Positions 858 through 45,691 of a DNA stretch of 64,000 bases are shown piece after piece. Made by a program: the position numbers and the translations under genes. The notes beneath the pieces are model-generated. The model searched no databases. It worked only from the letters and a program-made list of their open reading frames with translations, and was not told the origin of the DNA. The DNA is from a virus (Duplodnaviria > Heunggongvirae > Uroviricota > Caudoviricetes). The stretch spans positions 14,318-78,317 of the IMG/VR virus record IMGVR_UViG_3300011339_000564; one strand, given 5' to 3'. Every line of letters starts with the position of its first letter. Within the stretch, counting starts at the first letter, position 1.

Positions 858-1661
858 ATGGATCATTATGTAACTTTAGGGGTAAACAAAAATGCTACCC
901 CGGACGATATTAAAAAAGCATATCGCAAACTGGCAAGTAAACATCATCCCGATAAAGGGGGCGATACCGCAACGTTTCAACAAATTGAAGAAGCATATCG
1001 TATTCTCAGTGATCCACAACAACGTCAACAATATGACAATCCAATGCCACAAGGCTTTGGGCAGAATTTTAATTTTAACGGTGGACCTGATATCTTCCAA
1101 GACTTTATGAGTCAGGTGTTTAGGCAACAACATCAGCAACATCAACACCGCCAGAGACAAAAACCAGTATTTAGAACCACAGTAACTGTAACACTTGAAC
1201 AGTCATACAAAGGTGAAGAGCAAGTTATCAGACTACAAACACCTACACTTACACATGCGGCAAATATTCAAACTCCGAAAGGGGTTCATAATGGTGACCA
1301 AGTTAAATTTGATAATATCATACAAGAGGCAAGTCTTATTGTAGAGTTTAAAATTATACCACATTTAAAATATGATAGAAATGGAAATGACTTGTTATCA
1401 AATCACCCGATATCAATATTAGATTTAATTACAGGGACATCGTTTGAGTTTACTACTATTTCAGGTAAAACATTTGAAGTTACAGTTAAACCTAAAACGC
1501 AACCATTTATACAATTAAAAATTACAGGACAAGGTATGCCCATACATGGAACCAATCAGTTTGGCGACCAAATAATCTTGTTAAAACCCTATATACCTGA
1601 TATAATTGACGAATCAATTATTAACAGCATTCTACAATCTAAAAATAAGGAATCAATATGA
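858..1661 (+). CDS. J-domain co-chaperone (DnaJ/CbpA-like, no zinc finger)
   Basis: J-domain with HPD motif ([15 protein letters not shown]...QQRQQYD) and a DnaJ C-terminal beta-sandwich region. There is no Cys-rich zinc finger. Confidence 0.9.
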
Positions 1662-3919
1662 CAAATTCTCCGGAAATAGAAAACATTATCGAACAATCGA
1701 TTGAGTATGCCAAACAACGTAAACATCAATATGTTACAGTTGAACACTTACTTCTTGCATTAATTAATCATCCATCTTTTACTAAATGCGTAGTTGGCTT
1801 TGGCATAGATGTTGAGTCAATGTCACACGAAATCACTGGTTATTTAGATAGCTTACACGCTATTGTTTATACTGAAACTGAAGTAGTTCCACGCAAAACA
1901 AGTAGTTTAGAACGGGTTATGAATCGTTCTGTCACTCAGGTTCTATTCACCGGACGTAGACAAGTTACTACTATTGATTTGTATCTAAGTATTGCAAGTG
2001 AAGGTAACAGTCACGCACATTATTTCATGCTCAAATACGGTATGCAAAAGAATGAGTTTGTTGCGTACTGGCAAAAACACTATAAGAATGAAGGCGCCGG
2101 CAATCTTACTGAAAATCAAGCAGATGAAATTCTTGAAGAATATACTATTAACCTAAGTGAACTTGCTAGTCAAGGTAAACTTGAACCATTGATTGGTCGT
2201 GCAAAAGAACTTGATGATATTATCAATGTGCTTGCTAAACGATTTAAATCAAATGTATTGATGGTGGGTGATCCGGGTGTAGGTAAAACTGCTATTGCCG
2301 AAGGTCTTGCACAAATGATGCACGACAAACAAGTGCCTGAATTTTTAGAAGGTCATCAACTATATTCATTAGAAGTTGGTTCATTACTTGCCGGCAGCAA
2401 ATATCGCGGGGACTTTGAAGAAAAAGTCAAAGCCATTATCGATGCATTGAATACTAAAAAGAAAGCTATTTTATTCATTGACGAAGCACATACTATGCAA
2501 GGTGCAGGTTCAAGCTCCAATGGTAGTGTTGACTTTGCTAATATGATTAAACCAGCAATTACTAAAGGCACATTGAAAGTTATTGCTAGTACTACTTGGG
2601 AAGAATACTACGAAAGTTTTGAGAAGGATCGTGCATTAATGCGTAGATTCTATCGTGTCTCAATTGATGAACCAAGCAACGAATCTACTGTTCGAATTCT
2701 TTCTGGACTAAGCACACGATTGAATGACTTTCATAGTGTTGAAATTCAAGAAGATGCAATTAAAGCATCAGTTGAAATGTCAACACGATACATTCACGAC
2801 CGAAAAAATCCTGATAAAAGTATTGACTTATTGGATGCGGCTTGTGCTAAACAACGTGTTGCAGGTAATAAAGGTGCACATATTACTAAAGACTTAGTGT
2901 TTGACCAAGTAGAGAAGTTTACGGGAGTTCCTGCAGATAAGATGAAGGGTGATAATTTTGACCTTATCAATAACCTTGAGATTAATATCAAAGGTAAATT
3001 ATATGGTCAAGATGAAACCGTTCAGCAAGTGTTAGAACGTATCTATGTTAACTTTGCTGGTATCGGTAATGATACTAAACCAACAGGTAGTTTCTTGTTT
3101 TTAGGCCCAACAGGTACAGGTAAAACAGAATTGGCTAAGTTGTTAAGTAAGAACCTTGACATGCCATTGCTCAAATATGATATGAGTGAATACGGAGAAA
3201 AACATTCAGTATCTAGTTTGATCGGTCCGCCCCCTGGTTATGTTGGCTTCGGTGACAGTCAAGTCGGTGGTGGCCGTTTAATCAACGACTTAAGTAAGAA
3301 CCCACATGCTATCATGTTGTTTGATGAAGTTGAAAAAGCACACCCTGATATATTTAACATCTTCTTACAGATGTTAGACGAAGGTACTATTACAGGAAGT
3401 AATGGTAAGAAGGTTAACTGTAAGAATGCTATTATCATTATGACTAGTAACTTAGGTAGTGCCGATGGTGAGCGCAATAACATTGGTTTTGGATCACAAG
3501 ACAAGCAAGGAGAAGATGATAAAGCATTGAAAGAATTCTTTAAGCCAGAATTCAGAAATCGTGTTGATTTGATTTGCAAGTTTAACAAACTTGATAGCTT
3601 GGCTATTAAGAAAATTGTTATTAAGTTTACTGAAGATTTGAAAAAATCATTAATTGAAAAACACAATATCAATTTAGTATTGACAGAACCAGTAGTTGAG
3701 TATCTAGCTGAACAAGGGTATGACAAGAAAATGGGTGCTAGACCACTAGCACGTAAGATTGACGAATTGATTCGTGTACCACTGAGTAAAAAAGTATTGT
3801 TTGAACGCATTAAAAATGCTACTATTACTGCCAACATTGTTGGTGACACTATTGATTTTGCAGTGACACACAAATTAACAGCTAAGGTGAATGACGATGG
3901 CATTATTGAGGTCAGTTGA
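1658..3919 (+). CDS. clpA: ClpA-like AAA+ unfoldase
   Basis: Clp N-domain and two AAA+ modules (Walker A GDPGVGKT and GPTGTGKT). 753 aa with no ClpB middle domain. [11 protein letters not shown] aligns with the ClpA IGL ClpP-docking loop. ATGA overlap with the upstream J-domain gene. Confidence 0.85.
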
Positions 3920-5203: not shown

Positions 5204-6487
5204 ATGAAACAAATTGTCATTATGCCGGGAGGCTTTCATCCATTTCATGCAGGGCACGCCGCACTATATCAAAGTGCAGTGAAAGCATTTCCGAGTGCAG
5301 AAGTATATGTTGCCGCTACCAATGACACAAAAACAAGACCTTTCCCCTTTAATATCAAAGAAAAACTAGCAAAACTTGCTGGCGTAGCTCCTGGACATTT
5401 TGTACAAGTTAAAAGTCCTTTTAAAGCAGAAGAAATCACAAGTCAATATAATCCAGAAGAAGATGTATTAATTTTTGTGCGTAGTGAAAAAGATAGAACA
5501 GAACAACCTAAACCAGGTGGCACAAAGAAAGATGGTACACCTGCTTACTTTCAACCATGGACCGGTAAGAATTTACAGCCATTCAGTAAACATGCTTACA
5601 TTGCTTACTTACCAACTGTAGAGTTTGGACCTGGAATTCAGAGTGCGACTGAGATTCGCAACATGTGGCCTAAACTAAACGATAAGCGCAAGACTGCATT
5701 GGTTATGAGTTTATATCCGATAACACAGACAAATCCTAAACTTGCCGCTAACGTTGTTAAGATGTTAGATATAGGCATGGGTGAACGACAAGGTGTGGCG
5801 GAGGATAAAGAATCCGATCCAGTCACAAGTGCTGTATTAAATTTCTATAAGCCAGTAATAAATGATATCCACAAAGAAAAACTACCAGACTATGTTGACC
5901 AAGCTCGTGGATTGTTACAGAAAACAAATGATCCTGATATTCGTAGTAAATTAGTTGATATCTTTAAAAAGGGTAAAGAAAATCCATATATTCAAGGTGG
6001 CATTGTTACTACCGTTGGTGCAGTATTAGCCGGTGGTATATTAACTACAGCACAGAAGATGGGACTAAGCCCTGCACAAACTAACTTAGCATTACAAGCA
6101 ATATTGAATACAGTTATTCCTACAGTTGTTTCACGTATCAATGGTAAAAACTGGAGTGATACAATTAAGTATACATTAGCAAGTGCAGGTATAGGTACAG
6201 GTATTGCCGGCGCAAGTTTAGTAGAAAACGATCCTTGGGGAGATCAAGGTAACTTTGCAGGTGATCGACACGTTGATATTGGTGGAATTTTTACTAGACC
6301 TAAATTAGGTGTAGGTGATATGGTTAAAGTAAATGCAGGTCATTTCAAAGGCATCGGAGAGATATCAGAAATTAAAGGTGACCGTGCAGAAGTTTGGATG
6401 GACAGCTATGCTAAATCCTTCATGTTTGATTTATCTGACCTAGTAAAGTATATACCCGAATCCATAGATTACTTAGAAGAAAAATAA
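5204..6487 (+). CDS. HxGH nucleotidyltransferase domain fused to a Gly/Ala-rich hydrophobic region and a KOW-like C-terminus
   Basis: N-terminal MPGGFHPFHAGH (cytidylyl/adenylyltransferase HxGH signature), a central QGVAED motif, hydrophobic G/A-rich segments, and C-terminal VGDMVKVNAGHFKGIGEISEIKGDRAEV. Confidence 0.6.
   Translation: MKQIVIMPGGFHPFHAGHAALYQSAVKAFPSAEVYVAATNDTKTRPFPFNIKEKLAKLAGVAPGHFVQVKSPFKAEEITSQYNPEEDVLIFVRSEKDRTEQPKPGGTKKDGTPAYFQPWTGKNLQPFSKHAYIAYLPTVEFGPGIQSATEIRNMWPKLNDKRKTALVMSLYPITQTNPKLAANVVKMLDIGMGERQGVAEDKESDPVTSAVLNFYKPVINDIHKEKLPDYVDQARGLLQKTNDPDIRSKLVDIFKKGKENPYIQGGIVTTVGAVLAGGILTTAQKMGLSPAQTNLALQAILNTVIPTVVSRINGKNWSDTIKYTLASAGIGTGIAGASLVENDPWGDQGNFAGDRHVDIGGIFTRPKLGVGDMVKVNAGHFKGIGEISEIKGDRAEVWMDSYAKSFMFDLSDLVKYIPESIDYLEEK
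5789..5805 (+). repeat. Copy of the dispersed GC-rich motif CAAGGTGTGGCGGA(G/A)G (encodes QGVAE)
   Basis: CAAGGTGTGGCGGAGGA; one of six copies in the window. Confidence 0.8.
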
Positions 6488-9943: not shown

Positions 9944-12900
9944 ATGAGCAATATTCTACAAGGCTTAAACGAAACACAAAAACATGACGGTGTATTCTTG
10001 TTAACAGAATCTCGTACATACAAGTTATGGGAGAGTGCTGGACAAAAGATTAGTGAAGCACAACTAACTGCCGATCAGATTAATCAAATCTTTAAACAAG
10101 TTGAACAAGGTGCTACTGCCGCAGGTGGTAATCGTACAATGCTCGGTAAAGGTAAAGACGCAGCCGGCGCAGTAAAGCAAGCATATGATGATTTGGTGAG
10201 TAAAGCACAGAACTCAGGACCTATTAAAGGTGTTGATGCGATGTACGACAAAGCCGCCGAAAAATTAAAACAAGCAACTGGTGGCGATCAGGGTGTAATG
10301 AAATATGTACAGAAATATCGTGACTTTGCTAAAGAACACCCAGTAGCACAAGGTTTAATATATTCAGCATTAATTGCAGCCGCTGGTATCAGTGGTGCAG
10401 GTATTGGTGGTGCAGCCGCACTAGGTTTGTTTAAGATGGTAGACAAATTGTTACAGGGTGAGAAGTTTAGTACTGCTGTAGGTAAAGGCGTAACTACTGG
10501 TGCAATGGCTTATGGTGCAAGTAAAGTTGGTGATCTTTTCAAAGGTTCACCGCAAGGCGCACCTACTACTGCTGGATCAGACGCTACCGCAGGTGCGGCA
10601 CAAGATACATTGTCTGCGACTAGACAAGCAGTGGAAAAAGAAGCTATGGATGCCATTAAGTCTAGAATTGCCAATGGAGAAATAGCACCCGGCGATCAAG
10701 GTGCCATACGATATTTGGCATACAAAATGCTAGCTGGATCATGTATGCCGCCGCCGTCTATAGAAACTTCTGTAGAAAAATTAATAACACGATCTATGGG
10801 TGATGTAGGAACTAGCGCAACTAATACAGTGTCCGGCACATTGTCAGGTGTTACCGGAGAACAGATGGCTAGTCATCCTGCATACCAAGCAATGATTCAA
10901 AAGTTTGGCAATACACCCGGCGCTCGTCAGGCGGCTATGGCTGCTGCCAAGTCAGCAATTCTTAAGGGACAAGTCAATGAAAGTATCAATTTATCAGAAT
11001 CTCAAATCTTTCTATTGATAGGTAAGATTGTTGAACGTCAACGTAAACTTGACGAAGGCATCATGGATACACTTAAAGGCGCCGCAGGTAAAGCCGCCGA
11101 TTGGGCACAAACTAAAGGAACTAATTTAACAACTAAAGTTACTGCTGACAAATTATTACAAGCGTGGAAGAAAGCTGGTAGTCCAACAGATAGTTTAGAT
11201 GTTGCAAGCATTATTCAAAAAGCTGGTGTACCATCTGATTCAATCAAACAAGTATACACTACAATGCAAATACCTTTTGCAGGTGAAAAAGGTGCAGGTG
11301 CGAGTACAAAACGTAATATAGATGTTGATCCATCAAGTGTTGCACCAGCCGCTCCAACAAGTACACCCACTGCTTCTGCACCGTCAGCTACAGCAAATGC
11401 GCCGGCGGCAGATGCATCACAGCCTGCTACGGCCGCAACTGGCTCTTTAGCACAAGCACAAGAACTCATTGCAAAATTAGATCCAGAAACTAAAACAAAA
11501 CTTATATCAACATTGAAACAAGAGTTGAGTGTAGCTGAAAGTCGAATCAATGAATTATCTAATGAAAAATTAGGACAATACAAAAAAGCCGCAAGTGCTG
11601 ACGCTACTGCCGCTGACAAAGCAGGTGACTATAAGCGTGGTGATAAACGTTTCAGTGGTATTGTTCGTGCAACTAACAAACAGTTTGCTAATGATACTAA
11701 AAAACATGGTCAGCAAGGTGTGGCGGAAGGCTTAGAGCAATCATTATCGTCAATGGTAAGACAAGATCAGACTGAGCGGAATGAGTATGCAACCTTTGTA
11801 AAATCACAAGCAGGTGGTGATTGGTCCAAAGGGGCTAAAATGTATGCTCAACTCAAAAAAAGACCCATCGATGATATATTTGGTGATGCAATAAGATTAA
11901 ACCAGTTTATGAAAATGAAGTTTGATTTTGATAAATTTACCAATGAAGATTGGGACAATTATTGGTTGTTAGCACAGCATTGTGATAATAATCGTGACTT
12001 TCAAAAGAATGCTTTATCAATAATTAAAAAATATCAAGGTACAGATCATTCGCACTACAAATATCTATACGATAGAATCAGTATGGGTCTAACTGGTAAA
12101 CAGAAATACGGAACACAGAATATTAAAGAGCAAGGCGTGGCAGAAGGCTTCCCTCATGATGTTGACCATATGCCGGGTCCTGTGATTCGCAATGCTGATA
12201 TGACTACAGATAATGTCAAGACCAAAGACAAAGCAGAATGGGACAGAGCCACTGATAGCATCAACGCACGGGTGTTTGATGATATGAGTGAATTTCGCAC
12301 TGACAACAACGGTGAAACAGTTGTCGGTGATAGCGCAGTTTGGGCCAAGTGGGACAATGCTACACAAACAGGTTGGTTCAATGCCAAAGGTCGCCCATTA
12401 AAGCCTTGGCCTGTTAAAGAGCAAGGTGTGGCGGAAGGTGATGGGCCAAGATATATTGATAACATAATGAACCAGTATAAGGCAGGCTTGCCTGGCCAAA
12501 ACCCGGCGGCCTTATCTAAACCAACTAGAGCAGTTGATGCCAGAGGTCGCACACAAGAACAATGGGCACAATTAGTTAGGAGCAAGTTTCCGGGTGCTAA
12601 AATTACACAGGCTAAAATGATTGACGGGCCTATGCAAGCAACCTTACCTGATGGTAGAAAACTTGGATGGAAAAAAGTTGAACAAATTGATGAAATTATT
12701 GATCCTAGCACAAAGATGGCATGGGCATTACGCCACATCGCCGGGTTCCTTACTAGATTATTTCCTTACGCAGTGGGCGCCGGAACTTTGTGGGCAGCCA
12801 GTGGACTGTTGGCCCCACTAGTGGCTGCATCCGGTGGAGTGGCCGCGGCAATTTCTGCATTAGGCGGTTCAATGGGATCAGCTACAGGCGCGGCTGCAGG

Positions 12901-13795
12901 AGCAGTTGGCGGTGCCAGTATAATGCAAATTATTAAAAACTTATTTGCCGCAGACGAGAATAGTATACAAGCAGGAATTAAAAAGTGGGTAGAAAGACAA
13001 GTAGGTGACGAAGCCGATGTACAAGAATTTTTACTAACTCATGCCAAAGCCGCATATGACGGTAAACCTGGTTTCCGTTGGAGGGCTAAAGAGTGGCCTG
13101 TTAAATTAAGTAAAGATCAAGCAGAAGCATATTTAGAAAAGAAAGATAAATCTTGGCTTGATTATGAAAAGCAAAAAATAATCGATGCTGAAAAAGCGAA
13201 GGCTGAAAAAGATAAAGAAGGTATGATGGAAGAACAACTTGATGAACTAAATTGCTGGTCAGGTTACCATAGAGTTGCCGGCACTAAAGCAGGCTTTCCA
13301 GGTAGTTGTGCTAAAAATAAAACAAATGAATCAGAACATAAATGCCCACATTGCGGTGGCGAGATGGTTAGTGAAGAACTAATGAATGAAAAGAAAGATG
13401 CTTGCTACTATAAAGTAAAGAGCCGTTATAAAGTATGGCCAAGTGCTTATGCTAGTGGTGCGTTAGTTAAGTGCCGTAAGAGTGGTGCTGATAGCTGGGG
13501 CAACGGTGGAAAGAAGAATGAAGGTTCTATACTAGAAGGTATTAACCGAGCAGACGAAAGTTTGCATGATTGGTTTAATAAAGAAAAGTGGGTTCGCATG
13601 GATACTAAAGGAAAGATTAAAGGTCCGTGTGCTAGAGAACCAGGAGAAGGTAAACCTAAATGTTTACCTCAAGCAAAGGCACATAGTTTAGGCAAAAAAG
13701 GTCGTGCAAGCGCGGCTGCTAGAAAACGCAGAGAAGATCCCAATCCAGAACGTAGTGGTAAAGCCATCAATGTTAATACTAAAAAGAAAGACTAA
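9944..13795 (+). CDS. Giant modular protein (1283 aa), candidate virion-internal or ejection polyprotein
   Basis: Start set at the ATG at 9944, 1 nt after the upstream stop (the track start at 9842 overlaps the upstream gene). It has three QGVAEG motifs, an EGMMEEQLDELN motif, G/A-rich hydrophobic segments, an Ala/Pro/Thr low-complexity linker, and a Cys-rich basic C-terminus (CPHCGG...). Confidence 0.7.
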   Translation: MSNILQGLNETQKHDGVFLLTESRTYKLWESAGQKISEAQLTADQINQIFKQVEQGATAAGGNRTMLGKGKDAAGAVKQAYDDLVSKAQNSGPIKGVDAMYDKAAEKLKQATGGDQGVMKYVQKYRDFAKEHPVAQGLIYSALIAAAGISGAGIGGAAALGLFKMVDKLLQGEKFSTAVGKGVTTGAMAYGASKVGDLFKGSPQGAPTTAGSDATAGAAQDTLSATRQAVEKEAMDAIKSRIANGEIAPGDQGAIRYLAYKMLAGSCMPPPSIETSVEKLITRSMGDVGTSATNTVSGTLSGVTGEQMASHPAYQAMIQKFGNTPGARQAAMAAAKSAILKGQVNESINLSESQIFLLIGKIVERQRKLDEGIMDTLKGAAGKAADWAQTKGTNLTTKVTADKLLQAWKKAGSPTDSLDVASIIQKAGVPSDSIKQVYTTMQIPFAGEKGAGASTKRNIDVDPSSVAPAAPTSTPTASAPSATANAPAADASQPATAATGSLAQAQELIAKLDPETKTKLISTLKQELSVAESRINELSNEKLGQYKKAASADATAADKAGDYKRGDKRFSGIVRATNKQFANDTKKHGQQGVAEGLEQSLSSMVRQDQTERNEYATFVKSQAGGDWSKGAKMYAQLKKRPIDDIFGDAIRLNQFMKMKFDFDKFTNEDWDNYWLLAQHCDNNRDFQKNALSIIKKYQGTDHSHYKYLYDRISMGLTGKQKYGTQNIKEQGVAEGFPHDVDHMPGPVIRNADMTTDNVKTKDKAEWDRATDSINARVFDDMSEFRTDNNGETVVGDSAVWAKWDNATQTGWFNAKGRPLKPWPVKEQGVAEGDGPRYIDNIMNQYKAGLPGQNPAALSKPTRAVDARGRTQEQWAQLVRSKFPGAKITQAKMIDGPMQATLPDGRKLGWKKVEQIDEIIDPSTKMAWALRHIAGFLTRLFPYAVGAGTLWAASGLLAPLVAASGGVAAAISALGGSMGSATGAAAGAVGGASIMQIIKNLFAADENSIQAGIKKWVERQVGDEADVQEFLLTHAKAAYDGKPGFRWRAKEWPVKLSKDQAEAYLEKKDKSWLDYEKQKIIDAEKAKAEKDKEGMMEEQLDELNCWSGYHRVAGTKAGFPGSCAKNKTNESEHKCPHCGGEMVSEELMNEKKDACYYKVKSRYKVWPSAYASGALVKCRKSGADSWGNGGKKNEGSILEGINRADESLHDWFNKEKWVRMDTKGKIKGPCAREPGEGKPKCLPQAKAHSLGKKGRASAAARKRREDPNPERSGKAINVNTKKKD
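11714..11731 (+). repeat. Copy of the dispersed motif CAAGGTGTGGCGGAAGGC (QGVAEG)
   Basis: Contains the exact 16-mer core AAGGTGTGGCGGAAGG. Confidence 0.85.
12131..12148 (+). repeat. Copy of the dispersed motif (CAAGGCGTGGCAGAAGGC, QGVAEG)
   Basis: Two synonymous mismatches to the core. Shares the extended TTAAAGAGCAAGG context with the copy at 12422. Confidence 0.8.
12422..12439 (+). repeat. Copy of the dispersed motif CAAGGTGTGGCGGAAGGT (QGVAEG)
   Basis: Contains the exact 16-mer core. Confidence 0.85.
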
Positions 13796-13804
13796 AGGAC
13801 AATA

Positions 13805-14245
13805 ATGTTATCAGATAATCTAAAAGTACTTTTAGCTAGTACACAAAGTTTTGCTATTAAAACACAAAACTTTCATTGGAATGTTGAGGGGAGTAATTTT
13901 CCACAGTATCATGCATTTTTTGATACGTTATACGGTGATGTAAGTGCTACTATCGATCCTATCGCTGAATATATCAGAATATTAGGTGCTTACACACCCG
14001 GCAGTTTACAACGTTATGCTGAACTAAGTATCATTCAAGACCAAATCAAAATCCCACGTGCTCAACTAATGTTTGCTGAATCACTACAAGATTGTGAAAA
14101 AATGAGTGAATTAGTCGTTGCTATGTTTGACGAAGCAACAAACGAACGTCAGCAAGGCATTGCTAATTACATGGCTGAACTACAAGACCTATACGGTAAG
14201 AAAGCATGGTTCATTCGTTCTACATTGAAAACAGAACGTGAGTAA
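13805..14245 (+). CDS. dps: Dps-family ferritin-like DNA-protection protein
   Basis: KTQNFHWNVEGSNFPQYHAFFDTLY...IDPIAEYIRILG matches the Dps signature (fHWnv.G..F...H..f...y...D.iAEri..lG). Confidence 0.8.
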   Translation: MLSDNLKVLLASTQSFAIKTQNFHWNVEGSNFPQYHAFFDTLYGDVSATIDPIAEYIRILGAYTPGSLQRYAELSIIQDQIKIPRAQLMFAESLQDCEKMSELVVAMFDEATNERQQGIANYMAELQDLYGKKAWFIRSTLKTERE

Positions 14246-33144: not shown

Positions 33145-33825
33145 ATGAGTTATAATAAAACAAAAACAGATCCAGAGTTGGGTCAACGAGTACACGAACA
33201 TCTAGTTAAGATGGGTGTTGAAACTCCCACTAATCCAAACAACTATGACCGTAAAGAAAAGATAGATCATATTGAAGCGCATTTTACACACATTATGCGT
33301 ATCTTGGGTCTTGACTTAACAGACGATAGTTTGATTGAAACCCCTAAGCGTGTTGCCAAGATGTATGTCAACGAAATCTTTTGGGGACTTGACTATGACG
33401 CATTCCCTAAATGTACAACAGTTGACAACAAGATGCAATACAACGAAATGGTTGTAGAGCGTAATGTTAACGTTCAATCTAACTGCGAACATCATTTTGT
33501 AGTCATCGATGGACTAGCTACTGTAGCTTATGTCCCTAAACAAAAAGTTCTAGGGCTTAGTAAGATAAACCGTATCGTAGAATATTTTAGCAAAAGGCCT
33601 CAAATCCAAGAGAGGTTAACAGAGCAAATTTTTCACACCTTACAGTTCATCCTTGAAACAGAAGATGTTGCAGTTATGATTGATGCACAACACTATTGTG
33701 TAAAATCACGTGGTGTAGAAGATACGGGATCTAGTACTGTTACTTGTCGTTTAGGTGGCGGTTTCAAATCAGATCCTGCGGCAAGACAAGAGTTTTTACA
33801 GATTGCTAACAAAGGTTGCAAATGA
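33145..33825 (+). CDS. folE: GTP cyclohydrolase I (FolE type 1)
   Basis: SNCEHHFVVIDG and RPQIQERLTEQI match the FolE active-site motifs. 226 aa. Confidence 0.9.
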   Translation: MSYNKTKTDPELGQRVHEHLVKMGVETPTNPNNYDRKEKIDHIEAHFTHIMRILGLDLTDDSLIETPKRVAKMYVNEIFWGLDYDAFPKCTTVDNKMQYNEMVVERNVNVQSNCEHHFVVIDGLATVAYVPKQKVLGLSKINRIVEYFSKRPQIQERLTEQIFHTLQFILETEDVAVMIDAQHYCVKSRGVEDTGSSTVTCRLGGGFKSDPAARQEFLQIANKGCK

Positions 33826-33953
33826 TTATTACAATATTAGTTACAATAGCAGTAATAATAGCTATTGTTATAATGATTGCTACGATGCCAAATGCTAGTA
33901 GATGTAACGGAGACTGCAATCAAGGTCGTAACTGTACTTGTAGGGAGCAATAA
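33822..33953 (+). CDS. Small membrane peptide with a Cys-rich tail (43 aa)
   Basis: ATGA overlap with the folE stop. Translation MIITILVTIAVIIAIVIMIATMPNASRCNGDCNQGRNCTCREQ. Confidence 0.4.
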   Translation: MIITILVTIAVIIAIVIMIATMPNASRCNGDCNQGRNCTCREQ

Positions 33954-34171
33954 TGGCACTGATATATAAAGAAGTAGAAGTTGATATTGATCTGAGCGAT
34001 TTTGATACTGACGAATTAGTTGAAGAATTGGAAAACCGTGGCTCAGGTGTTATGGACTACGATGACGGCAAGGAAGTACTACAGTCGATTTACGAAAAAC
34101 GTAGACTTGGACAAGACTATCAGCAAGAACTAGACCAATTAATTTGGTTAGGATTAGGGAGAGTTGTATGA
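33953..34171 (+). CDS. Hypothetical acidic protein
   Basis: 72-aa ORF, translationally coupled. Confidence 0.5.
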
Positions 34172-34362
34172 TGAAATTTAAATTAGGTGACATGGTTAAA
34201 AAAGTGTCTGGTTCACAATGGCATGGAAAAGTAGTTGGTACATACTCAACTGAGTTAACGCCTGAAGGATATGCAGTTGAGAGTCATACAGAAAAAGGTT
34301 CTGTACAAATATACCCTGCAAAGGCTCTTGAGTTATGGGAGTTGAATAATGGGATTTCGTAA
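34168..34362 (+). CDS. dfrB: Type II (R67/DfrB-like) dihydrofolate reductase
   Basis: Start at the ATG at 34168 (ATGA overlap). [52 protein letters not shown] aligns along its length with R67 DHFR ([52 protein letters not shown]), including the VQIY pore motif. Confidence 0.8.
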
Positions 34363-34585
34363 ACAAATGGACTACAATGCAGTACATCATCAAATCTATA
34401 TGAGTGGTGTAGAATTACATAGTAATTACAATGATGGTTACAATCAGTTTGAAATCAAAAAAGATTTACATCGTATCAAGTGGTTGTTAGATGAGATTAT
34501 GGCTGACAGCCCTACATTTGCAGGGGAAGACGAATTCTTAAAAGAACATGAACAAACTAAGATGTGGAGAACTCTTTCAAAATGA
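34349..34585 (+). CDS. Hypothetical protein
   Basis: 78-aa ORF, overlap-coupled on both sides. Confidence 0.5.
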
Positions 34586-35055
34586 TTTTCAATCACATTA
34601 AAAAACTCAAACAAGATGGAAAGAAGATAGGTATTACTTTTAGTACATTCGACCTACTTCACGCAGGTCATATTGCTATGTTAAGTGAAGCAAAAAATCA
34701 TTGTGATTATCTTATTTGTGGATTACAAACTGACCCCACGATTGATCGACCTGAAACAAAGAATAAACCCATTCAAAGTATCGTAGAACGACAGATTCAA
34801 CTTGCGGCTTGCCGCTATGTCGATGAAGTTGTTGTTTATCAAACTGAACAGGACCTTATTGACTTGTTACTTATTCTACCACTAGATGTTCGCATTTTGG
34901 GTGTAGAGTATGCAGATAAAGACTTTACCGGAAGATATGAAGGTAGTGAGCGTGGCATTGAAATTGTATTCAATGGTCGTGACCACAGTTTCAGCAGTAG
35001 TAGTTTACGAAAACGGGTAGCTGATGCCCAGATTATTAACGTTCTTAATAAATAA
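34582..35055 (+). CDS. HxGH cytidylyltransferase-family protein (TagD/RfaE-domain II-like)
   Basis: Start at the ATG at 34582 (ATGA overlap). GITFSTFDLLHAGHIAMLSEAK...YVDEVVVY. Confidence 0.7.
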   Translation: MIFNHIKKLKQDGKKIGITFSTFDLLHAGHIAMLSEAKNHCDYLICGLQTDPTIDRPETKNKPIQSIVERQIQLAACRYVDEVVVYQTEQDLIDLLLILPLDVRILGVEYADKDFTGRYEGSERGIEIVFNGRDHSFSSSSLRKRVADAQIINVLNK

Positions 35056-35083
35056 CTATAGCGGTCTTTGGACATCATCCCGC

Positions 35084-35112
35084 TTTACAAATTCTGCTGC
35101 CTATGCTATAAT
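35084..35112 (+). promoter_or_regulatory. sigma70-type promoter TTTACA-17-TGcTATAAT
   Basis: TTTACA at 35084-35089 and TATAAT at 35107-35112 with an extended TG. AGGAG RBS before the ATG at 35130. Confidence 0.55.
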
Positions 35113-35129
35113 CAACATAGGAGAAATTC

Positions 35130-35612
35130 ATGGCAAACAAAAAATTCTTTTCAACAAAGACATACAGACAAATAGGTCCTGTCGCTTATCGTCAATGGCG
35201 TGCTGACAGTCATTGTAACTTAATTCATGGCTATGCTATGAGTTTTCACTTTGAGTTTGAGGCTGATACGTTAGACGCACGTAACTGGGTAACTGACTTC
35301 GGTGGATTACGACCTCTCAAAGATAAACTAGAAGAATGGTTTGACCATACATTACTAGTTGCACAAGATGACCCAATGCGTGAACATCTATTAGAACTAG
35401 GTCGTTTAAAGCTAGCTAAAATTACAGAAGTAGAACGTACTGGGTGTGAAGGTATTTCTGACTTTTTATATGAATACATTAACACAATTTTTTTGCCTAA
35501 CTGCGGTAGTGAAGAAGCTAAACGTGTATGGTGCTGTAGAGTAGAAGTCCGCGAGACTGATAGTAACATGGCAGGACGTAGTGGTCATAGGGAAGATAGA
35601 GAGTTTGAATAA
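35130..35612 (+). CDS. queD: 6-carboxy-5,6,7,8-tetrahydropterin synthase (QueD/PTPS family)
   Basis: HCNLIHGYAMSFHFEFE, DFGGLRPLKDKLEEWFDHTLL and the small T-fold size (160 aa). Confidence 0.7.
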   Translation: MANKKFFSTKTYRQIGPVAYRQWRADSHCNLIHGYAMSFHFEFEADTLDARNWVTDFGGLRPLKDKLEEWFDHTLLVAQDDPMREHLLELGRLKLAKITEVERTGCEGISDFLYEYINTIFLPNCGSEEAKRVWCCRVEVRETDSNMAGRSGHREDREFE

Positions 35613-36235
35613 TGTTAGAAACAATTTGCGATACATTAGTTGAAGCATATAAACGCAACTGGATTACCAGTCGTGATGGCAATGTAAGTATTCGTCATCA
35701 TGATCGGGATCATTTTTACATCACACCCAGTGGTGTGCGTAAGCAGACAATGCAACCGGATCAGTTTAAGAAGATTCGTATTGTTGGTAGTATGTTATGG
35801 GAAGAGCAACCATACACTGATATCAGTGCTAATCTTAAACCGTCAGGTGAGCTACCACTACACCTCGGACTACAGCGAAAAATGGGACAGCACAATAATG
35901 ATGTTAGAGTAGTAGTACATTTACATCCCACATACTGTGTTGCCGCTATGCACCGCGGCATTGAGTTGAGTAGTCTGGCTAATGACTTTCCTGAACTCAG
36001 TCGCTATACTAGCGTGGCACCCAATGTGGGTGATGTGCCTCCTATTAGCCAGGAACTTGCAGACCGCTGTCATGAAAATTTGGGACTAGATAAGAATGGT
36101 ACTATTGCTTATGACATTGTAGGTATCAAAGGTCACGGTGTGGTCGCTATAGATACTAGCCCATGGAGGGCTTTTGAACATATTGAACGATTAGAACATA
36201 TTTGTCAAATCGTATTAGCATCAGGGAAATATTAA
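35612..36235 (+). CDS. Class II aldolase/adducin-domain protein (epimerase/aldolase/dehydratase family)
   Basis: SRDGNVSIRH, YITPSGV, and VVVHLHPTY metal-binding His motifs. Confidence 0.7.
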   Translation: MLETICDTLVEAYKRNWITSRDGNVSIRHHDRDHFYITPSGVRKQTMQPDQFKKIRIVGSMLWEEQPYTDISANLKPSGELPLHLGLQRKMGQHNNDVRVVVHLHPTYCVAAMHRGIELSSLANDFPELSRYTSVAPNVGDVPPISQELADRCHENLGLDKNGTIAYDIVGIKGHGVVAIDTSPWRAFEHIERLEHICQIVLASGKY

Positions 36236-36236
36236 A

Positions 36237-36650
36237 ATGTTAGACTGTATAATTATAGGTGATAGCATTGCAGTTGGTACAGCTATGGCTCGTCCAGAGT
36301 GTGTAAGTTATTCAAAAGGCGGCTGGAACAGTTGGCAATGGAACAAGGATTACTTAGCCAAAGCCTCTGCTCAACCTGCTCAAACTATAATCATTAGTCT
36401 TGGAGCCAACGACCACAAGGGTGTTAAGACTGAGCTTGAGTTACGTAAAATGCGAGAAGCAGTTAAGGGCCAGCGTGTGTTTTGGATCGATCCAGGTCAA
36501 GACCGTAAACCTATTCCACACGATGCAATTATTCGCATTGCTAAAGAATATGGTGATACAGTATTGCCTAGGCCAAAGAATCATATGAGTGCTGACGGAG
36601 TACATCCAACTGGTCGAGGTTATAAGATTTTAGGAGAGATGGCAAAATGA
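36237..36650 (+). CDS. SGNH/GDSL-family hydrolase
   Basis: IIIGDSIAVG (block I, GDS), SLGANDH (block III) and DGVHP (block V). Confidence 0.6.
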   Translation: MLDCIIIGDSIAVGTAMARPECVSYSKGGWNSWQWNKDYLAKASAQPAQTIIISLGANDHKGVKTELELRKMREAVKGQRVFWIDPGQDRKPIPHDAIIRIAKEYGDTVLPRPKNHMSADGVHPTGRGYKILGEMAK

Positions 36651-37282
36651 GTTATATTGTAGGATCATTACCTCCTATTAAGTGTTGGATAAAACGTGAA
36701 TTTCTTTACAACTTTGAAAAAGGTCACGGAGAATTAGAACCTGCCATATGGGTAAGTCTTAAAGCATTACGTGGACAAGTGTTTCGTATTGAATCATTAT
36801 TACCCAATTACGGAGCACTCTACGATAAACTGCCCATTCATGCCTATGTATGGCAAGACAACTACACAGGCAATCTACCTATAGATACTTTACAACTCTG
36901 GGACTGCATGGGTTATCGCTTTACTATCATTGAAAAAATAGGTTTACGTAATCTAGGTGTTAAGTTCTTGGGCAAAGATAAAGAATGGCATCACGGAACT
37001 TATTTATTTACAGTAGATTTTTGTGCTGATGGAATGGATGTAGATACAGGTTTTACTGAAGTAGCAGAAGAACACAAGTCGTTTAATTTTATTAGATTAG
37101 AAAATGGACAGTTTGCTTGTCAACCCAATAATCGATGTTTGTGGTACGACCAAAGTTTGATTTCAGGTACAGTGAAATTTCCAGACTTTAAAGCCGCACA
37201 GACCATATTTACAGTAGATGGTACTCGCAAGTGGAGTGCAGGAGATGATTGGTTTTATTCTATTGAGGAAAAAAATGAATAG
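36647..37282 (+). CDS. Hypothetical protein
   Basis: 211-aa ORF with ATGA coupling. Confidence 0.55.
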   Translation: MSYIVGSLPPIKCWIKREFLYNFEKGHGELEPAIWVSLKALRGQVFRIESLLPNYGALYDKLPIHAYVWQDNYTGNLPIDTLQLWDCMGYRFTIIEKIGLRNLGVKFLGKDKEWHHGTYLFTVDFCADGMDVDTGFTEVAEEHKSFNFIRLENGQFACQPNNRCLWYDQSLISGTVKFPDFKAAQTIFTVDGTRKWSAGDDWFYSIEEKNE

Positions 37283-37466
37283 TTTAGAAAAAATATGGGC
37301 TAGAGCAACTGGTCATTTAATGGGTAACACTGATGATGATAGACCCGATGTACCTATTCTTACTTTACGAGAAGCAAGAATTGCATTGTTCCTAAAAACT
37401 TTCTGGATTATACTACATGTGATAACATGTTGTTTCATCATAGCAAATACATTACGTCATTGGTAA
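37275..37466 (+). CDS. Small membrane protein
   Basis: Start at the ATG at 37275. C-terminal TM segment FLKTFWIILHVITCCFIIANTL. Confidence 0.45.
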   Translation: MNSLEKIWARATGHLMGNTDDDRPDVPILTLREARIALFLKTFWIILHVITCCFIIANTLRHW

Positions 37467-37469
37467 AAT

Positions 37470-37667
37470 ATGAACAAAAAAATTACAGAACTATGGGAAC
37501 AGGCCGCTCAACGAGATGACTTACTAGACGAAAAACGGTATGAGCATTTTGCTGAATTATTAATTAGAGATTGTGCAAAACAAGTTAATCATCTGGCTAA
37601 ACAAGGTGGCGGAACTTGGGGCGAAGTCATTCTAGAAAACTACAATATAAGTGTATATAAAAAATGA
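37470..37667 (+). CDS. Member of the small 'FAELIVREC' paralog family
   Basis: MNKKITELWEQAA...HFAELLIRDCAKQV. Divergent C-terminus. Confidence 0.55.
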   Translation: MNKKITELWEQAAQRDDLLDEKRYEHFAELLIRDCAKQVNHLAKQGGGTWGEVILENYNISVYKK

Positions 37668-38512
37668 GTCATTTAAAAGTATCAGAATTATTTTACAGTA
37701 TCCAGGGAGAAGGTCGCTATATGGGAGTGCCAAGTATTTTCCTAAGAACATATGGATGCAATTTTACATGCGGTGGCTTCGGTATGCCTAAGGGAGAAAT
37801 GAGTAATGAGAGAGATGTTATCGCAATTAAAGCAGAAGATTATACAGATTATAAATCCTTACCACTTGTCAGTACTGGATGTGATAGTTACGCATCTTGG
37901 GACCCTCGCTTTAAACATCTTAGTCCTGTTATCTCTACCGATTCTATTGCTGACAGTATTATGGATATACTTCCTCACAAGCGTTGGATGGATGAACATC
38001 TTGTTATTACAGGTGGTGAACCTTTGCTTGGATGGCAAAGAGCGTATCCAGACTTACTTTCAAACGAGAAAATGAGAGCATTGAAAGAGATTACATTTGA
38101 AACTAATGGCACACAAGAACTAAGTAAAGACCTTACTAACTATCTTCATCAATGGAAGATCAGCCGTGAAAATAACGCACTTACATTCAGTGTGAGTCCT
38201 AAACTTAGTATCAGCGGTGAGAAGTGGGAAGAAGCAATATGTCCACAAGTTGTTCGTCAATATGAAAGTGTTGGCTTTGTATATCTTAAATTTGTTATTG
38301 CTACTAAAGAAGATGCGATTGAGGCAGATAAAGCAGTTAAAGAATTTCGTACAGCTGGATTCAGAGGTCCAATATACTTCATGCCATGCGGTGGTGTAGA
38401 AAGTATCTATAATTTAAATGCTAGAAATGTTGCTATTGAAGCAATGAATCGTGGCTATCGCTATAGTGATAGATTACAGGTGCCTCTATTTAAAAATGAA
38501 TGGGGGACATAA
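37664..38512 (+). CDS. queE: 7-carboxy-7-deazaguanine synthase (QueE, radical SAM) with atypical Cys spacing
   Basis: ELFYSIQGEGRYMGVPSIFLRTYGCNFTC is the QueE N-terminal signature. The third Cys of CxxxCxxC is missing locally, and the next Cys (GCDSYASWDP) lies 36 residues later. VITGGEPLL. Confidence 0.75.
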   Translation: MSHLKVSELFYSIQGEGRYMGVPSIFLRTYGCNFTCGGFGMPKGEMSNERDVIAIKAEDYTDYKSLPLVSTGCDSYASWDPRFKHLSPVISTDSIADSIMDILPHKRWMDEHLVITGGEPLLGWQRAYPDLLSNEKMRALKEITFETNGTQELSKDLTNYLHQWKISRENNALTFSVSPKLSISGEKWEEAICPQVVRQYESVGFVYLKFVIATKEDAIEADKAVKEFRTAGFRGPIYFMPCGGVESIYNLNARNVAIEAMNRGYRYSDRLQVPLFKNEWGT

Positions 38513-41299: not shown

Positions 41300-41773
41300 T
41301 TATAGACCAATCTTGGGTGGATACATTGGGCCAGACTTTATTCGTTCACCACCGTCAAAGTAACTAATTTCTACTGGTAATTCTTTCCAGCCTAATCTAT
41401 GTGCAGCCATGATACGATGATTACCTTCGTTTACCCAGGCACTGCCATCATAGGCCACATTGATAAAAGGTTTGTATTCTTCACTAGAGTGTGAATGTAA
41501 TGGTAGCTTGCCGGTGTCCTTCATTATTTTCATAATTGCAATAAGATCACCTTGACGCACATTTTGTTGTTCGTTTCGCATACCGGGTATTTGTCTTAGT
41601 AAGTTAACAGGAATTTCAACTTTTCTGACAGTAGCAGTTGTCTTTCCCATGTAGGGCAAACCATTACGATCAGGACTTTTTTGCTTGGCATACGCAATAG
41701 CATCGTTTAGCCATTCCTCATTAGGCACATCAACACTAAGTGTTCCTTCAGTTATAAATTCTTTTGCTCTCAC
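41300..41773 (-). CDS. ParB/sulfiredoxin-fold domain protein with a CTS-like N-terminus
   Basis: N-terminus MRAKEFITEG. VEIPVNLLRQIPGMR...DGSAWVNEGNHRIMAAHRLGWKELPV matches the ParB N-terminal domain pattern (DG....eGnHR..Aa..lG). Confidence 0.5.
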   Translation of the reverse strand: MRAKEFITEGTLSVDVPNEEWLNDAIAYAKQKSPDRNGLPYMGKTTATVRKVEIPVNLLRQIPGMRNEQQNVRQGDLIAIMKIMKDTGKLPLHSHSSEEYKPFINVAYDGSAWVNEGNHRIMAAHRLGWKELPVEISYFDGGERIKSGPMYPPKIGL

Positions 41774-42444
41774 ATTGATCCTTTAGAATTAACAAACCAG
41801 GGGTCAACTATAACTAATTCTCCATTACTACGTTGCATGACATTTTCGGTGTGCAAGTCCCAACCAAATTTGTTTATTCTACCCGATTGATATAATAGTT
41901 TCATTACACTAAACAAGGTAGCATACGTCTTATAAAAAGTAACACCTTGCTGTGTCATTGCATTATCTATAAGTTTAGCCATTTTAGATGATATTGGGCT
42001 AGAGAAGAATTTCCAAGTTTCAGGATCAGTTAGTGAAGGTAAGATTTGTTGCCAAGTCTCACCTGTAACAGCATAGTCACTTAATATCCAGACCATTGCT
42101 TCTTCAACACTGTTCTTTTTAATAGGCTGAAGATGTTCCATGTCAATTTGTATGTAATCCTCACCGGCAATATCGATTGTATTCATTTCATTAAATATAG
42201 GTAAACAAGAAATCTCAGGATGATTTTCACAGAATTCGTAAAACTTTTTAAATACTTTTTCAGCGTGACCACTAGGATCATCTGGCATTAATATTTTAAT
42301 CACATGACTAGTATCTTTAGCCCATACTCTTGCATCAGCTCCGCTACCAATATGTTTGTAACCTAGTGATTTTAAATGCGCGGCAATTTCTTTGAAGGCT
42401 GGTCCTGTTGCAGCCTCATCTACTGCAAATTCATTGGCTCTCAT
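41770..42444 (-). CDS. Protein kinase-like (APH/choline kinase-like) fold protein with a CTS-like N-terminus
   Basis: N-terminus MRANEFAVDEA. IGSGADARVW (Gly loop), HVIKIL (Lys), DLHTENVM (catalytic loop) and LVIVDPW. Confidence 0.5.
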   Translation of the reverse strand: MRANEFAVDEAATGPAFKEIAAHLKSLGYKHIGSGADARVWAKDTSHVIKILMPDDPSGHAEKVFKKFYEFCENHPEISCLPIFNEMNTIDIAGEDYIQIDMEHLQPIKKNSVEEAMVWILSDYAVTGETWQQILPSLTDPETWKFFSSPISSKMAKLIDNAMTQQGVTFYKTYATLFSVMKLLYQSGRINKFGWDLHTENVMQRSNGELVIVDPWFVNSKGSM

Positions 42445-42623
42445 TTCTTGCGACCCCTAAACCCTACTGGCATCTGCAAATCATTAACGGGAAACATTGC
42501 TTTGAACCACTCATCAGTACCAGGCTTAGCAGTAATTTTGCTACGGTCTATAGGCACAGAAGATGTAGGTTTTCCTCTATGGTCGGTAACTCCTGCAAGT
42601 CTTTTAAGTTGATCTATGTTCAT
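42441..42623 (-). CDS. Small hypothetical protein
   Basis: 60 aa, MNIDQLKRLAGV..., overlap-coupled within the minus-strand operon. Confidence 0.5.
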   Translation of the reverse strand: MNIDQLKRLAGVTDHRGKPTSSVPIDRSKITAKPGTDEWFKAMFPVNDLQMPVGFRGRKK

Positions 42624-43174
42624 AGACTCTTACCCCAGCGTGTGTTAATCACATTCCAGTTGATAATCTTCCACTGTTCAGCCAAATACTTTTTCTTATC
42701 AGCACCGTAGTCTAATATCCACGCATGTTCCCACCAATCAACTAATAACAATATATCATTGCGTACTTCATGGTTCTTAATTGTTTTAATTTTACCATCA
42801 GTTGCTAAATATACCCACCCACTACCTTGTATCTTCATTGCTTCAGTTTCAAACTGTGACTTCATATTATCGTATGAGCCAAAATGTTTGTTAATAAAGC
42901 CCATCATGGGGCCGTTTGGATTGTTTTTATTTCTTACTTCACGGAACTGAGGGAACAATGTATTATGTAAGAATGCACCTGCATAGTTAAATTCTTTATC
43001 TCCGATATCTTTGTTATATCTTTCAGCATAGCCATGTGCTAACTTGCCATAGTGTAAGTCTATAGTGTCTACCGACAAAACCGGACTTAGTTCTTTTGGC
43101 TCAAAATTAAGCTGAATGATTTCTATATCTTGAGGTTTTGACTTATCCTCAAGTAACTGAATTAAATCACGCAT
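42620..43174 (-). CDS. sodB: Fe/Mn superoxide dismutase
   Basis: DTIDLHYGKLAHGY, FLHNTLF, FGSYDNMKSQF, GSGWVYL, LLLVDWWEHAWILDY and INWNVI align with SodB blocks. All four metal ligands are present. Confidence 0.8.
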   Translation of the reverse strand: MRDLIQLLEDKSKPQDIEIIQLNFEPKELSPVLSVDTIDLHYGKLAHGYAERYNKDIGDKEFNYAGAFLHNTLFPQFREVRNKNNPNGPMMGFINKHFGSYDNMKSQFETEAMKIQGSGWVYLATDGKIKTIKNHEVRNDILLLVDWWEHAWILDYGADKKKYLAEQWKIINWNVINTRWGKSL

Positions 43175-44955: not shown

Positions 44956-45644
44956 TTCTTGTGGTTCCTAATAAATTGTTCTGCTAGCATTACTAATTCT
45001 TGCATTTGCTCAATAGATTCACAATGCCATCTACGTAAACTCTTATTAATATTGCTGTTTGGATCACGTGCTGTTTTAGCACTTGTACGATGTTTCTTCA
45101 TACCGCGCATTCTAGCGCAAAAACTAGCACGGCGCTTTGCGTCCTTGCTACCCTTTTTAATCTTGCTTGGCTTTTTAGTAACTGCTGTTTGAATCTTGCT
45201 ACCAGGATGACTACGGCGATAACTACTTACAGATTTTTTACTCATCCCACCTACACGTTTGTTATTGTGCTTTGACCAATTCTCGCCTTCCGCCACACCT
45301 TGACTTAATAATTTTTTAACAGATATTGGACCTGATTGATTTTCTGCACCGGTTAAAAATTCATTTCCCCATGGGGTTATCCAACCATCAAATTCAATAT
45401 CATTGCCTTGAACCATAATATCATTATTACCATCAAGGTTTTGATATCCATTCAACTCTTTGTACCATTTTCTTAATGATTGTAACTTGTATGGACCTTT
45501 GTAGCCTTGTTTTTTCAAAATAGAAATAATTTCCGGAGTAAATCCAACTGGTTGACCCTCAGATACTTTCTCTTTTTTGCTAATAGCAATAGCGGCTTGT
45601 TGTGCTGGATTTGCGGCTTCTGTTAAAATTTCTGTTATTCTCAT
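44952..45644 (-). CDS. Hypothetical protein with a CTS-like N-terminus and a basic C-terminal domain
   Basis: N-terminus MRITEILTEAA, one SQGVAEG motif, and a basic C-terminus RRASFCARMRGMKKHR...RRWHC. Confidence 0.6.
   Translation of the reverse strand: MRITEILTEAANPAQQAAIAISKKEKVSEGQPVGFTPEIISILKKQGYKGPYKLQSLRKWYKELNGYQNLDGNNDIMVQGNDIEFDGWITPWGNEFLTGAENQSGPISVKKLLSQGVAEGENWSKHNNKRVGGMSKKSVSSYRRSHPGSKIQTAVTKKPSKIKKGSKDAKRRASFCARMRGMKKHRTSAKTARDPNSNINKSLRRWHCESIEQMQELVMLAEQFIRNHKK
45285..45302 (-). repeat. Copy of the dispersed motif (reverse complement CAAGGTGTGGCGGAAGGC, QGVAEG)
   Basis: Contains the exact 16-mer core on the minus strand. Confidence 0.85.
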
Positions 45645-45662: not shown

Positions 45663-45691
45663 TTGACTTTATTGCGTAGTTGTGCTACACT
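45663..45691 (+). promoter_or_regulatory. sigma70-type promoter TTGACT-17-TGcTACACT
   Basis: TTGACT at 45663-45668 and TACACT at 45686-45691 with an extended TG. This argues that the uvdE-like gene starts at the ATG at 45721 rather than at 45682. Confidence 0.5.

Follow-up and report, generated by a model that had tools for sequence, protein, structure and literature searches.

A short in-frame joint between exchangeable protein modules of uncultured T4-superfamily myoviruses

We analysed a stretch of 64,000 nucleotides (nt) from a virus of the class Caudoviricetes (IMG/VR record IMGVR_UViG_3300011339_000564, positions 14,318 to 78,317 of a 77-kb JGI metagenome contig; hereafter the window), in which a 16-mer, AAGGTGTGGCGGAAGG, recurs within several genes as part of the codons for the peptide QGVAEG. 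This motif is a universal in-frame joint between protein modules in a large clade of uncultured myoviruses that belong, as judged from their gene content, to the T4 superfamily. It marks, with little doubt, the boundary of exchanged cassettes. The reading we favour, and hold to be moderately probable, is that it combines a prohead-protease site between packaged cargo modules with in-frame cassette exchange that keeps its nucleotide sequence identical.

An approximate-match scan of both strands of the window yielded seven matches to AAGGTGTGGCGGAAGG with at most three mismatches, against 0.27 expected from 100 dinucleotide shuffles (maximum of one). Four are exact (11715-11730 and 12423-12438 on the plus strand, 44354-44369 and 45286-45301 on the minus strand), two plus-strand copies have two mismatches (5790-5805, GAA to GAG and Gly to Asp; 12132-12147, GGT to GGC and GCG to GCA, both synonymous), and one has three (44813-44828, minus strand, EGMTEE). 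An earlier reading of the window made from its letters alone (hereafter the sequence-only reading) lacked the last copy; its claims that the motif recurs six times on both strands, in frame as (Q/E)GVAE(G/D) in four proteins, were borne out by the scan and the translations of the open reading frames (ORFs), as the window ORFs of more than 100 amino acids (aa) hold six GVAE peptides, each of this form and all within four ORFs. Three joints, all QGVAEG, lie in the 1283-aa multi-module product of host gene 2 (9944-13795, plus strand), the first and third canonical (CAAGGTGTGGCGGAAGGC, 11714-11731; 12422-12439) and the second with two synonymous changes (CAAGGCGTGGCAGAAGGC, 12131-12148); they delimit modules of 133 aa (11732-12130) and 91 aa (12149-12421), each with a joint at both ends. 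The variant joint of host gene 1 (5204-6487, plus strand, 427 aa), CAAGGTGTGGCGGAGGAT (QGVAED, 5789-5806), stands between an N-terminal cytidylyltransferase-like domain and a C-terminal module. Host gene 3 (43174-44955, minus strand) consists of a leader module, a variable cassette and a conserved GP88-type enzyme module with a canonical joint (EGVAEG, 44353-44370) directly upstream, and host gene 4 (44952-45644, minus strand) of the leader MRITEILTE, an N-terminal module, a canonical joint (QGVAEG, 45285-45302) and, directly downstream, a DUF6321 module. The DNA flanks of the window copies are mutually unrelated.

A second, related joint was also found. At 44812-44829 (minus strand) the window carries EGMTEE (GAAGGTATGACGGAAGAG), where the loci L085, L025 and L023 have canonical EGVAEG, and a second copy, EGMMEE(QLDE), lies at 13217-13234 (plus strand). 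The two represent a longer pattern, GAAGGTATGA(T/C)GGAAGA(A/G)CAACTTGA(T/C)GAA, encoding EGM(M/T)EEQLDE, which is 80% identical over 51 nt between 13204-13254 (plus strand) and 44792-44842 (minus strand) in two genes.

The motif occurs far more widely than in the window. At least 120 IMG/VR stretches carry the exact 16-mer, and 120 of these (given L numbers here), of more existing, were studied; the counts below are among the matches listed. The total is estimated by recapture at about 360, because a 24-mer sub-pattern was present in 15 stretches of which five were among the first 120. Many motif contigs hold two to five copies spaced by multiples of three, and contigs of the motif clade reach 300-520 kb. 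Sufficient flank was available for 168 exact copies; nearly all of these read (K/E/Q)(Q/E/K)GVAEG in the frame of a long ORF, and the sequences around them are unrelated. The 18-mer had 56 matches in bacterial and archaeal genomes (596 Gb), mostly single and in high-GC actinomycetes; multiple copies were limited to a small contig of viral appearance from a metagenome-assembled genome. The motif is essentially absent from cultured phages (INPHARED), among which tblastn with host gene 3 gave no close relative. Matches of tandem motif copies to T7-like Klebsiella phages in a blastn search of cultured phages were discarded as chance. Full-text literature searches for the peptide and the 16-mer returned nothing relevant, and no such joint is described in the papers on polyvalent proteins (PMC5512222) or jumbo phages.

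The identity of the motif extends to its silent sites. GTG makes up 12.4% of Val and GCG 7.5% of Ala codons in 62 window ORFs, and the probability that at least four of the six window GVAE peptides would share GGT GTG GCG GAA is 4.5e-9, so the claim of the sequence-only reading that G-ending codons are kept at these sites was correct. In the loci and the window together, GGTGTGGCGGAA encodes 223 of the 283 GVAE peptides. GTG is used in 90% and GCG in 89%, whereas the backgrounds in these loci are 20% and 11.5%, and removal of one ascertained copy per locus still leaves each at about 83%. The final Gly codon is GGC in 78%, though GGT is the commonest Gly codon. The conserved block spans about 20 nt (approximately -4 to +17, rAG CAA GGT GTG GCG GAA GGC t) and ends sharply: the next codon varies freely, and the Ser that frequently follows is encoded by all six synonyms. 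Every position changes among 187 near-copies with one to three mismatches, third positions being about twofold more variable than first and second ones. The least-changed bases are the T of GTG (2 changes) and the GA of GAA (5 and 2), against 11-83 elsewhere, and where Val has been lost from decayed copies, Met, Leu or Ile has mostly taken its place.

Similarity between loci breaks off at the motif. In an all-against-all blastn comparison of the motif loci, the end-points of high-scoring segment pairs (HSPs) were about tenfold denser within 10 nt of the motif than further off; seeding of alignments on the motif, a perfect match, accounts for part of this placement. Among HSPs of 100 nt or more, 375 begin or stop at the motif and nine run across it under looser margins, six of these between near-identical contigs; under strict margins a single spanning case is left, and numerous HSPs have the motif at both ends. 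The module boundary for recombination envisaged in the sequence-only reading is thus strongly supported. Two further comparisons are independent of seeding. Between L011 and L111, 181 nt enclosed by two joints are 97.8% identical, whereas the 150-nt flanks on each side are 27-29% identical, as random sequences are. In the host gene 3 family, an N-terminal module of about 42 aa (MNFKELFEG...QFVAKAGDMPGEESE) and the C-terminal GP88-type enzyme are conserved, while one or several differing cassettes lie between two joints in the window, L085, L025, L069, L035 and L081; the window cassette (44371-44811, minus strand, 147 aa, signal-peptide-like start WKKAAATGAMALGAMGALGSAGSAHA) is replaced by unrelated ones in these five orthologues. 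By a crude ungapped measure, upstream cassettes differ among nearly all loci below 99% identity. The motif-bearing ORFs encode beads-on-a-string proteins with modules of roughly 45-150 aa. Cassettes with PARP-like catalytic signatures (TYLWHGSRQKI, NYLYHAT) recur after joints in L026, L093, L102, L002 and L089, which suggests ADP-ribosyltransferase cargo, as in T4 Alt.

What is kept at the joint at the protein level was assessed in a motif-independent sample of 80 loci fetched with the GP88 module alone (contigs up to 524 kb). Minimal GP88 orthologues join the leader straight to the enzyme by EVDE|ATKLPA (the bar marks the predicted cut), and longer ones hold cassettes; (L/V)-x-E|ATKLPA is kept in all host gene 3 orthologues, cassette-free minimal forms included, and appears in the window as an L-E-E|A site before ATKLPA (44317-44325, minus strand). 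The orthologous junction before (E/D)HLxRIRKLSGL occurs in 45 distinct upstream contexts, about 40 of which keep hydrophobic-x-E-(G/S/A/T), for example GVAEG, SVAEG, TIAES, DMAEG, GMAES, ILPEA, TFKES, AILEG and GINES. The canonical bases are present in only about one third of the contexts, and divergent ones have drifted to A/T-ending codons. As the peptide rule is kept while the bases are lost, the protein needs only hydrophobic-x-Glu at this place and can function without the canonical nucleotides. The cleavage rule of the T4 prohead protease gp21 is hydrophobic-x-Glu and then a small residue, which G-V-A-E|G fits, and on this basis we predict, with somewhat better than even confidence, that the joint is cut by a gp21-type protease. 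Signal-peptide-like (WKDVVAGGAMTLGAL, WKKAAATGAMALG...SAHA) and Tat-like (IDRRGFLKGLG) segments were observed directly after joints in L067, L110 and L115 and in the window at 44371-44811; such segments would be N-terminal only if the joint were cut, and therefore fit cleavage.

The genomic context is of T4 type. With T4 query proteins taken from NC_000866, homologues of gp17 (six), gp18 (six), UvsX (five), gp23 (three), gp20 (one) and gp41 (one) were detected in the motif loci, and a gp43-type polymerase lies beside motif genes in about 40 loci as well as in the window, whose only T4-type genes are this gp43-like gene (27% identity, E 6e-53) and a gp30-like ligase. A homologue of gp21, for which the sequence-only reading had proposed to look, is encoded on the motif contigs L016 and L038 (tblastn, 36-37% identity); Pfam models identify Peptidase_S77 (PF03420, E 2.9e-26) and Gp23 (E 1e-99) in L038. 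L038, L016 and L061 share the order portal, acidic protein, gp21, scaffold, major capsid protein (MCP), GIY-YIG gene and motif-bearing multi-module gene, and the MCP of this group begins with MSQALLE|G...ALME|G. The GIY-YIG gene, homing-endonuclease-like, occupies positions 7843-8589 of L038, 3214-3984 of L016 and 1959-2705 of L061. In cultured cyanomyoviruses, a protein annotated as a virion structural protein adjoins the small terminase (L179, S-RIM2, 2440-3504; L180, S-E7, 2047-3636). It is homologous to the C-terminal modules (DUF5872 type) of host gene 2 and shares the DUF5872, 'NCVP', DUF6321 and 'WVR...PKC' modules with the window, linked by the non-canonical x-E-G joints VQMEG, EFEG or VQNEG instead of QGVAEG. 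This annotation, and the place of the motif gene behind the head genes in L038, L016 and L061, are indirect hints that such proteins may be present in the capsid.

Many motif-bearing ORFs open with a leader similar to the capsid-targeting sequence (CTS) of T4. In T4, this N-terminal sequence (MKTYQEFIAE) of the internal proteins and Alt is removed by gp21 at (L/I)-x-E (PMC9026906, PMC3012670, 10.1101/2021.01.19.427310); its residues 4 and 7 determine targeting and its residues 8 and 10 processing (PMC9026906). The internal proteins of T-even phages are diverse cargo in which the CTS alone is conserved (PMC3012670), and prohead proteases of this type cut after Glu (PMC9026906, PMC3012670, PMC5694885). 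The frequent start of the motif ORFs, M-(K/R/N)-x-x-(E/D/Q/N)-(F/L/I)-(F/L/I)-x-E (MRAQEFITE, MRAHEFIVE, MRATEFIIE, MKTTDFITE, MKINEIISE), is similar to the T4 CTS; the T4 N-termini in NC_000866 include MELITELFDE (Alt), MAKINELLRE (gp24) and MLKEQLIAE (gp22). As counted from crude ORF calls, the leader in its strict form opens 17 of 93 motif ORFs versus 55 of 1110 others, an enrichment with an odds ratio of 4.3 (P = 1e-5). The window has an unbroken run of five minus-strand genes (41300-45644) that begin with MRAKEFITEG, MRANEFAVDE, MRDLIQLLED, MNFKELFEG and MRITEILTE. The fourth of these is the leader of host gene 3 (44929-44955, minus strand, L-F-E|G). CTS-like starts are further present in the genes at 9163 (MRFTEISES), 9944 (host gene 2, MSNILQGLNE, ending in L-x-E) and 19968. 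The run at 41300-45644 sits in a mostly plus-strand region. One of its genes (42620-43174, MRDLIQLLED...) encodes a Fe/Mn superoxide dismutase (SOD), which could be packaged, and another (41770-42444) has a sub-threshold match to Kinase-PolyVal (E 0.003).

We propose the following mechanism. Given their CTS-like N-terminal leader, the host proteins would be loaded into the prohead and cut: a gp21/Peptidase_S77 protease would cleave at the leader and at every joint (...G-V-A-E|G...), freeing separate cargo modules (enzymes and small domains) that would stay in the capsid and probably be ejected with the DNA. Co-infecting or related phages would cross over inside the 16-18-nt joint, by the T4-type UvsX machinery or by short-homology annealing, because the joint is the sole sequence common to otherwise unrelated cassettes and always has the same frame. 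Cassettes could in this way be swapped, inserted and deleted with the reading frame and the cleavage site intact. Each exchange would restore the canonical sequence, while quiescent joints would drift to the hydrophobic-x-Glu rule, so that turnover, without a function of the bases themselves, would maintain GC-rich synonymous codons in AT-rich genomes.

Several observations weigh against this proposal. No gp21 homologue was detected in the 64-kb window; the support for the prohead-protease site V-A-E|G of the sequence-only reading, from gp21 in the clade, retention of hydrophobic-x-Glu and CTS-like leaders, is substantial but indirect. The enrichment of the leader in motif ORFs comes from crude ORF calls. 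Host gene 1 has no CTS-like leader, and the neighbours of host genes 1 and 2 are non-structural (DnaJ, ClpB-like protein, ferritin, polymerase). For classical homologous recombination, a length of 16-18 bases is small. Differences between cassettes are also seen across non-canonical junctions, as far as a crude ungapped identity can tell, and canonical bases may therefore be unneeded for exchange. Finally, the third positions of the motif at the orthologous junction are not more conserved than those of neighbouring conserved codons, in a comparison of proteins of 73-98% identity whose neighbouring codons have diverged little too. The bases may or may not be under direct purifying selection: of the nucleotide-level selection or gene conversion put forward in the sequence-only reading, the silent-site identity across loci is real, but selection above that on neighbouring codons is not apparent.

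The strongest alternative, which we nevertheless regard as unlikely, is that the motif is a recombination joint and nothing else, GVAEG being a harmless flexible linker in proteins that act uncut, with its identity kept by cassette exchange. This would account for the same breakpoint evidence (HSP ends, motif-bounded HSPs, the host gene 3 family and L011/L111), for mismatches in near-copies that fall on all codon positions with third positions only about twofold more variable, and for the location of host genes 1 and 2 among non-structural genes. A mere linker would not, however, explain why decayed copies conserve Glu, and the hydrophobic residue at the second place ahead of it, far better than any other residue, or why both are kept in about 40 of 45 junction versions despite change of the other residues and of the silent sites. 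The existence of CTS-like leaders and gp21-family proteases in the clade, and of signal-peptide-like or Tat-like segments placed right after joints, where they would become N-terminal only after cutting, likewise argues for cleavage.

A dedicated enzyme might instead act on the joint. In its most developed form, the joint would be the crossover site of an enzyme-driven in-frame cassette system, an 'integron for protein modules', with bases selected directly as the recognition site; cargo cassettes would then be excised from and inserted into the space that separates a capsid-targeting leader from a protease site, and the phages could rapidly re-assort injected effectors. We think this improbable, and rate lower still the general case that a site-specific recombinase, a homing-type endonuclease or a host Chi-like hotspot mobilises the cassettes in the manner of an integron or shufflon. 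Conservation that includes silent positions over about 20 nt, direct copies that bound cassettes and the GIY-YIG endonuclease gene adjoining the motif gene in L038, L016 and L061 speak for an enzyme site. Yet homologues of T4 Seg/Mob or of the L038 GIY-YIG protein occur in at most five of 120 motif loci, no recombinase family is recurrent near the motif in the examined loci, many non-canonical sequences work at the orthologous junction, and the motif is non-palindromic and has no inverted partner.

Still less credible is a role at the RNA level, in which a purine-rich core resembling a Shine-Dalgarno (SD) sequence would cause ribosomal pausing between domains, serve as an internal translation start or be a binding site for a regulator or RNase. 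The GC-rich, purine-rich core, the rare codons and the exact position between domains are compatible with it, but the variant with the better SD match, GCG GAG GGC (GGAGG), is rare (26 of 283), no start codon follows the motif at a fixed distance, the window contains no Rfam family, the folds of the six copies differ (z -1.8 to +0.5), and the flanks are unrelated, while orthologous junctions drop the bases and keep the peptide rule. The SD-like pause or binding site suggested in the sequence-only reading consequently finds no support, the GAG variant being a minority, a shared fold or Rfam family being absent and the bases being dispensable. A likeness to the 3' end of 16S rRNA (CAAGGT...CGGAAGG) was dropped as it has the same sense as the rRNA and is not complementary to it. 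Peptide conservation combined with chance or codon bias, or recent duplication within one genome, might be thought of for so short a peptide with GGT, GAA and CAA among the preferred window codons, but is excluded by the P value given above and by the same bases in hundreds of contigs with unrelated flanks, those of the window being without similarity as well.

Short coding motifs that bound swappable modules and provide homology for their exchange are known from the 'His boxes' of T-even tail fibres, the 17-bp repeats of Borrelia vls, the VENN motif of CdiA and the PxxxxDPxGL pre-toxin motif of Rhs proteins. These systems swap one variable end or the cassettes of a single locus, whereas the joint described here is common to many genes and genomes and is apparently also a protease site. 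Closer to the present phages, the T4 CTS/gp21 system likewise has a short leader ending in hydrophobic-x-Glu, diverse cargo behind a conserved element, a T4-superfamily background and Peptidase_S77, and T4 Alt is also an enzyme cargo, cut at both ends. Unlike in T4, the cleavage-type element here is internal and present up to at least five times per protein, between cassettes of 45-150 aa, and it is dominated by one sequence, QGVAEG, with silent sites fixed over hundreds of contigs; cleavage and packaging are predictions here.

The PeSL cassettes of T4-type phages, in which a promoter and a stem-loop flank ORFans that are shuffled by homologous recombination, with mini-circles (Arbiol et al. 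2010, PMC2839356), are a further parallel from the same superfamily: short conserved DNA flanks unrelated cassettes, marks the breakpoints of insertion, deletion and replacement, and directs exchange to acceptable places. PeSL elements, in contrast, are intergenic and regulatory and shuffle whole genes, while the joint is 16-18 nt of in-frame coding sequence that shuffles intragenic modules; repeat analysis and folding of the window copies revealed neither promoter nor stem-loop, so that the joint falls outside the definition of PeSL. Polyvalent proteins combine 2-15 unrelated domains; it has been proposed that they accompany the DNA and are processed into separate units, which is attributed to an in-built metallopeptidase (MPTase; Iyer et al. 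2017, PMC5512222). The proteins described here are similarly multi-modular and include PARP-like ('YLWHGSR'), nucleotidyltransferase and small unknown domains. The four host proteins of the window showed no MPTase, a systematic search of the loci not having been made, and PMC5512222 describes no conserved inter-domain joint, the word 'linker' being absent from it. In the head maturation of giant phages (phiKZ gp175, 201phi2-1, SPN3US gp245), many head and ejection proteins are cleaved behind the Glu of (S/A/G)-x-E or A-x-E (PMC5694885, PMC9026906). Cutting at Glu with few other determinants and several sites per substrate is shared with the joint, and the long propeptides of giant phages are thought to target the prohead; the residue two before Glu is small there and hydrophobic here, and neither nucleotide conservation nor cassette exchange has been reported for these phages. 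The joint thus differs from known systems in being internal, repeated and in frame, in having one sequence across genes and genomes, and in the apparent double use of its bases, for proteolysis through the peptide and for exchange through the DNA.

The remainder of the window offered some further observations. Its auxiliary genes (858-3919, 13805-14245, 33145-38512 and 45682-46749) form an unusual set, with DnaJ and a 753-aa ClpB-like protein with two AAA+ domains, a ferritin-like protein, GTP cyclohydrolase and QueE-type radical SAM genes (7-deazaguanine pathway) and a UvdE UV endonuclease. A 39-nt tandem repeat at 53974-54090, with two identical copies and one diverged, encodes low-complexity sequence of the type APAKKEEAKPAAA. 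Sigma70-like promoter cassettes (TTGACA-N17-TATAATA) precede small ORFs at 47187-47221, 48856-48887, 57447-57481, 57784-57818 and 58107-58141 and recall the early-promoter cassettes (PeSL) of T4-type hyperplastic regions; three paralogous small-gene segments lie near them (49881-50108, 59033-59327 and 60326-60566). The T4 late-promoter octamer TATAAATA is under-represented in the window (two found, eight expected from shuffles). The minus-strand gene that starts at 45644 is preceded, at about 55 nt, by GATAAATA, and in several IMG/VR loci (T/C/A)ATAAATA was seen, anecdotally, 7-10 nt before the ATG of motif-bearing genes.

If the proposed combination of protease site and cassette exchange is right, a short coding motif can be conserved at its silent sites through the turnover of cassettes and not through a function of the nucleic acid. 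The joint would then be a natural case of recombination aimed at protein-domain boundaries, extending the PeSL idea from genes to domains, and would provide a design rule for packing several foreign proteins into T4-type capsids. Together with the CTS-like leader, it would be a sequence handle by which candidate injected effectors can be sought in viromes, the candidates so far being PARP-like, nucleotidyltransferase, GP88-type and possibly SOD modules. For the phages themselves, it would mean that uncultured T4-like phages build and re-assort strings of capsid-loaded cargo with one standard connector.

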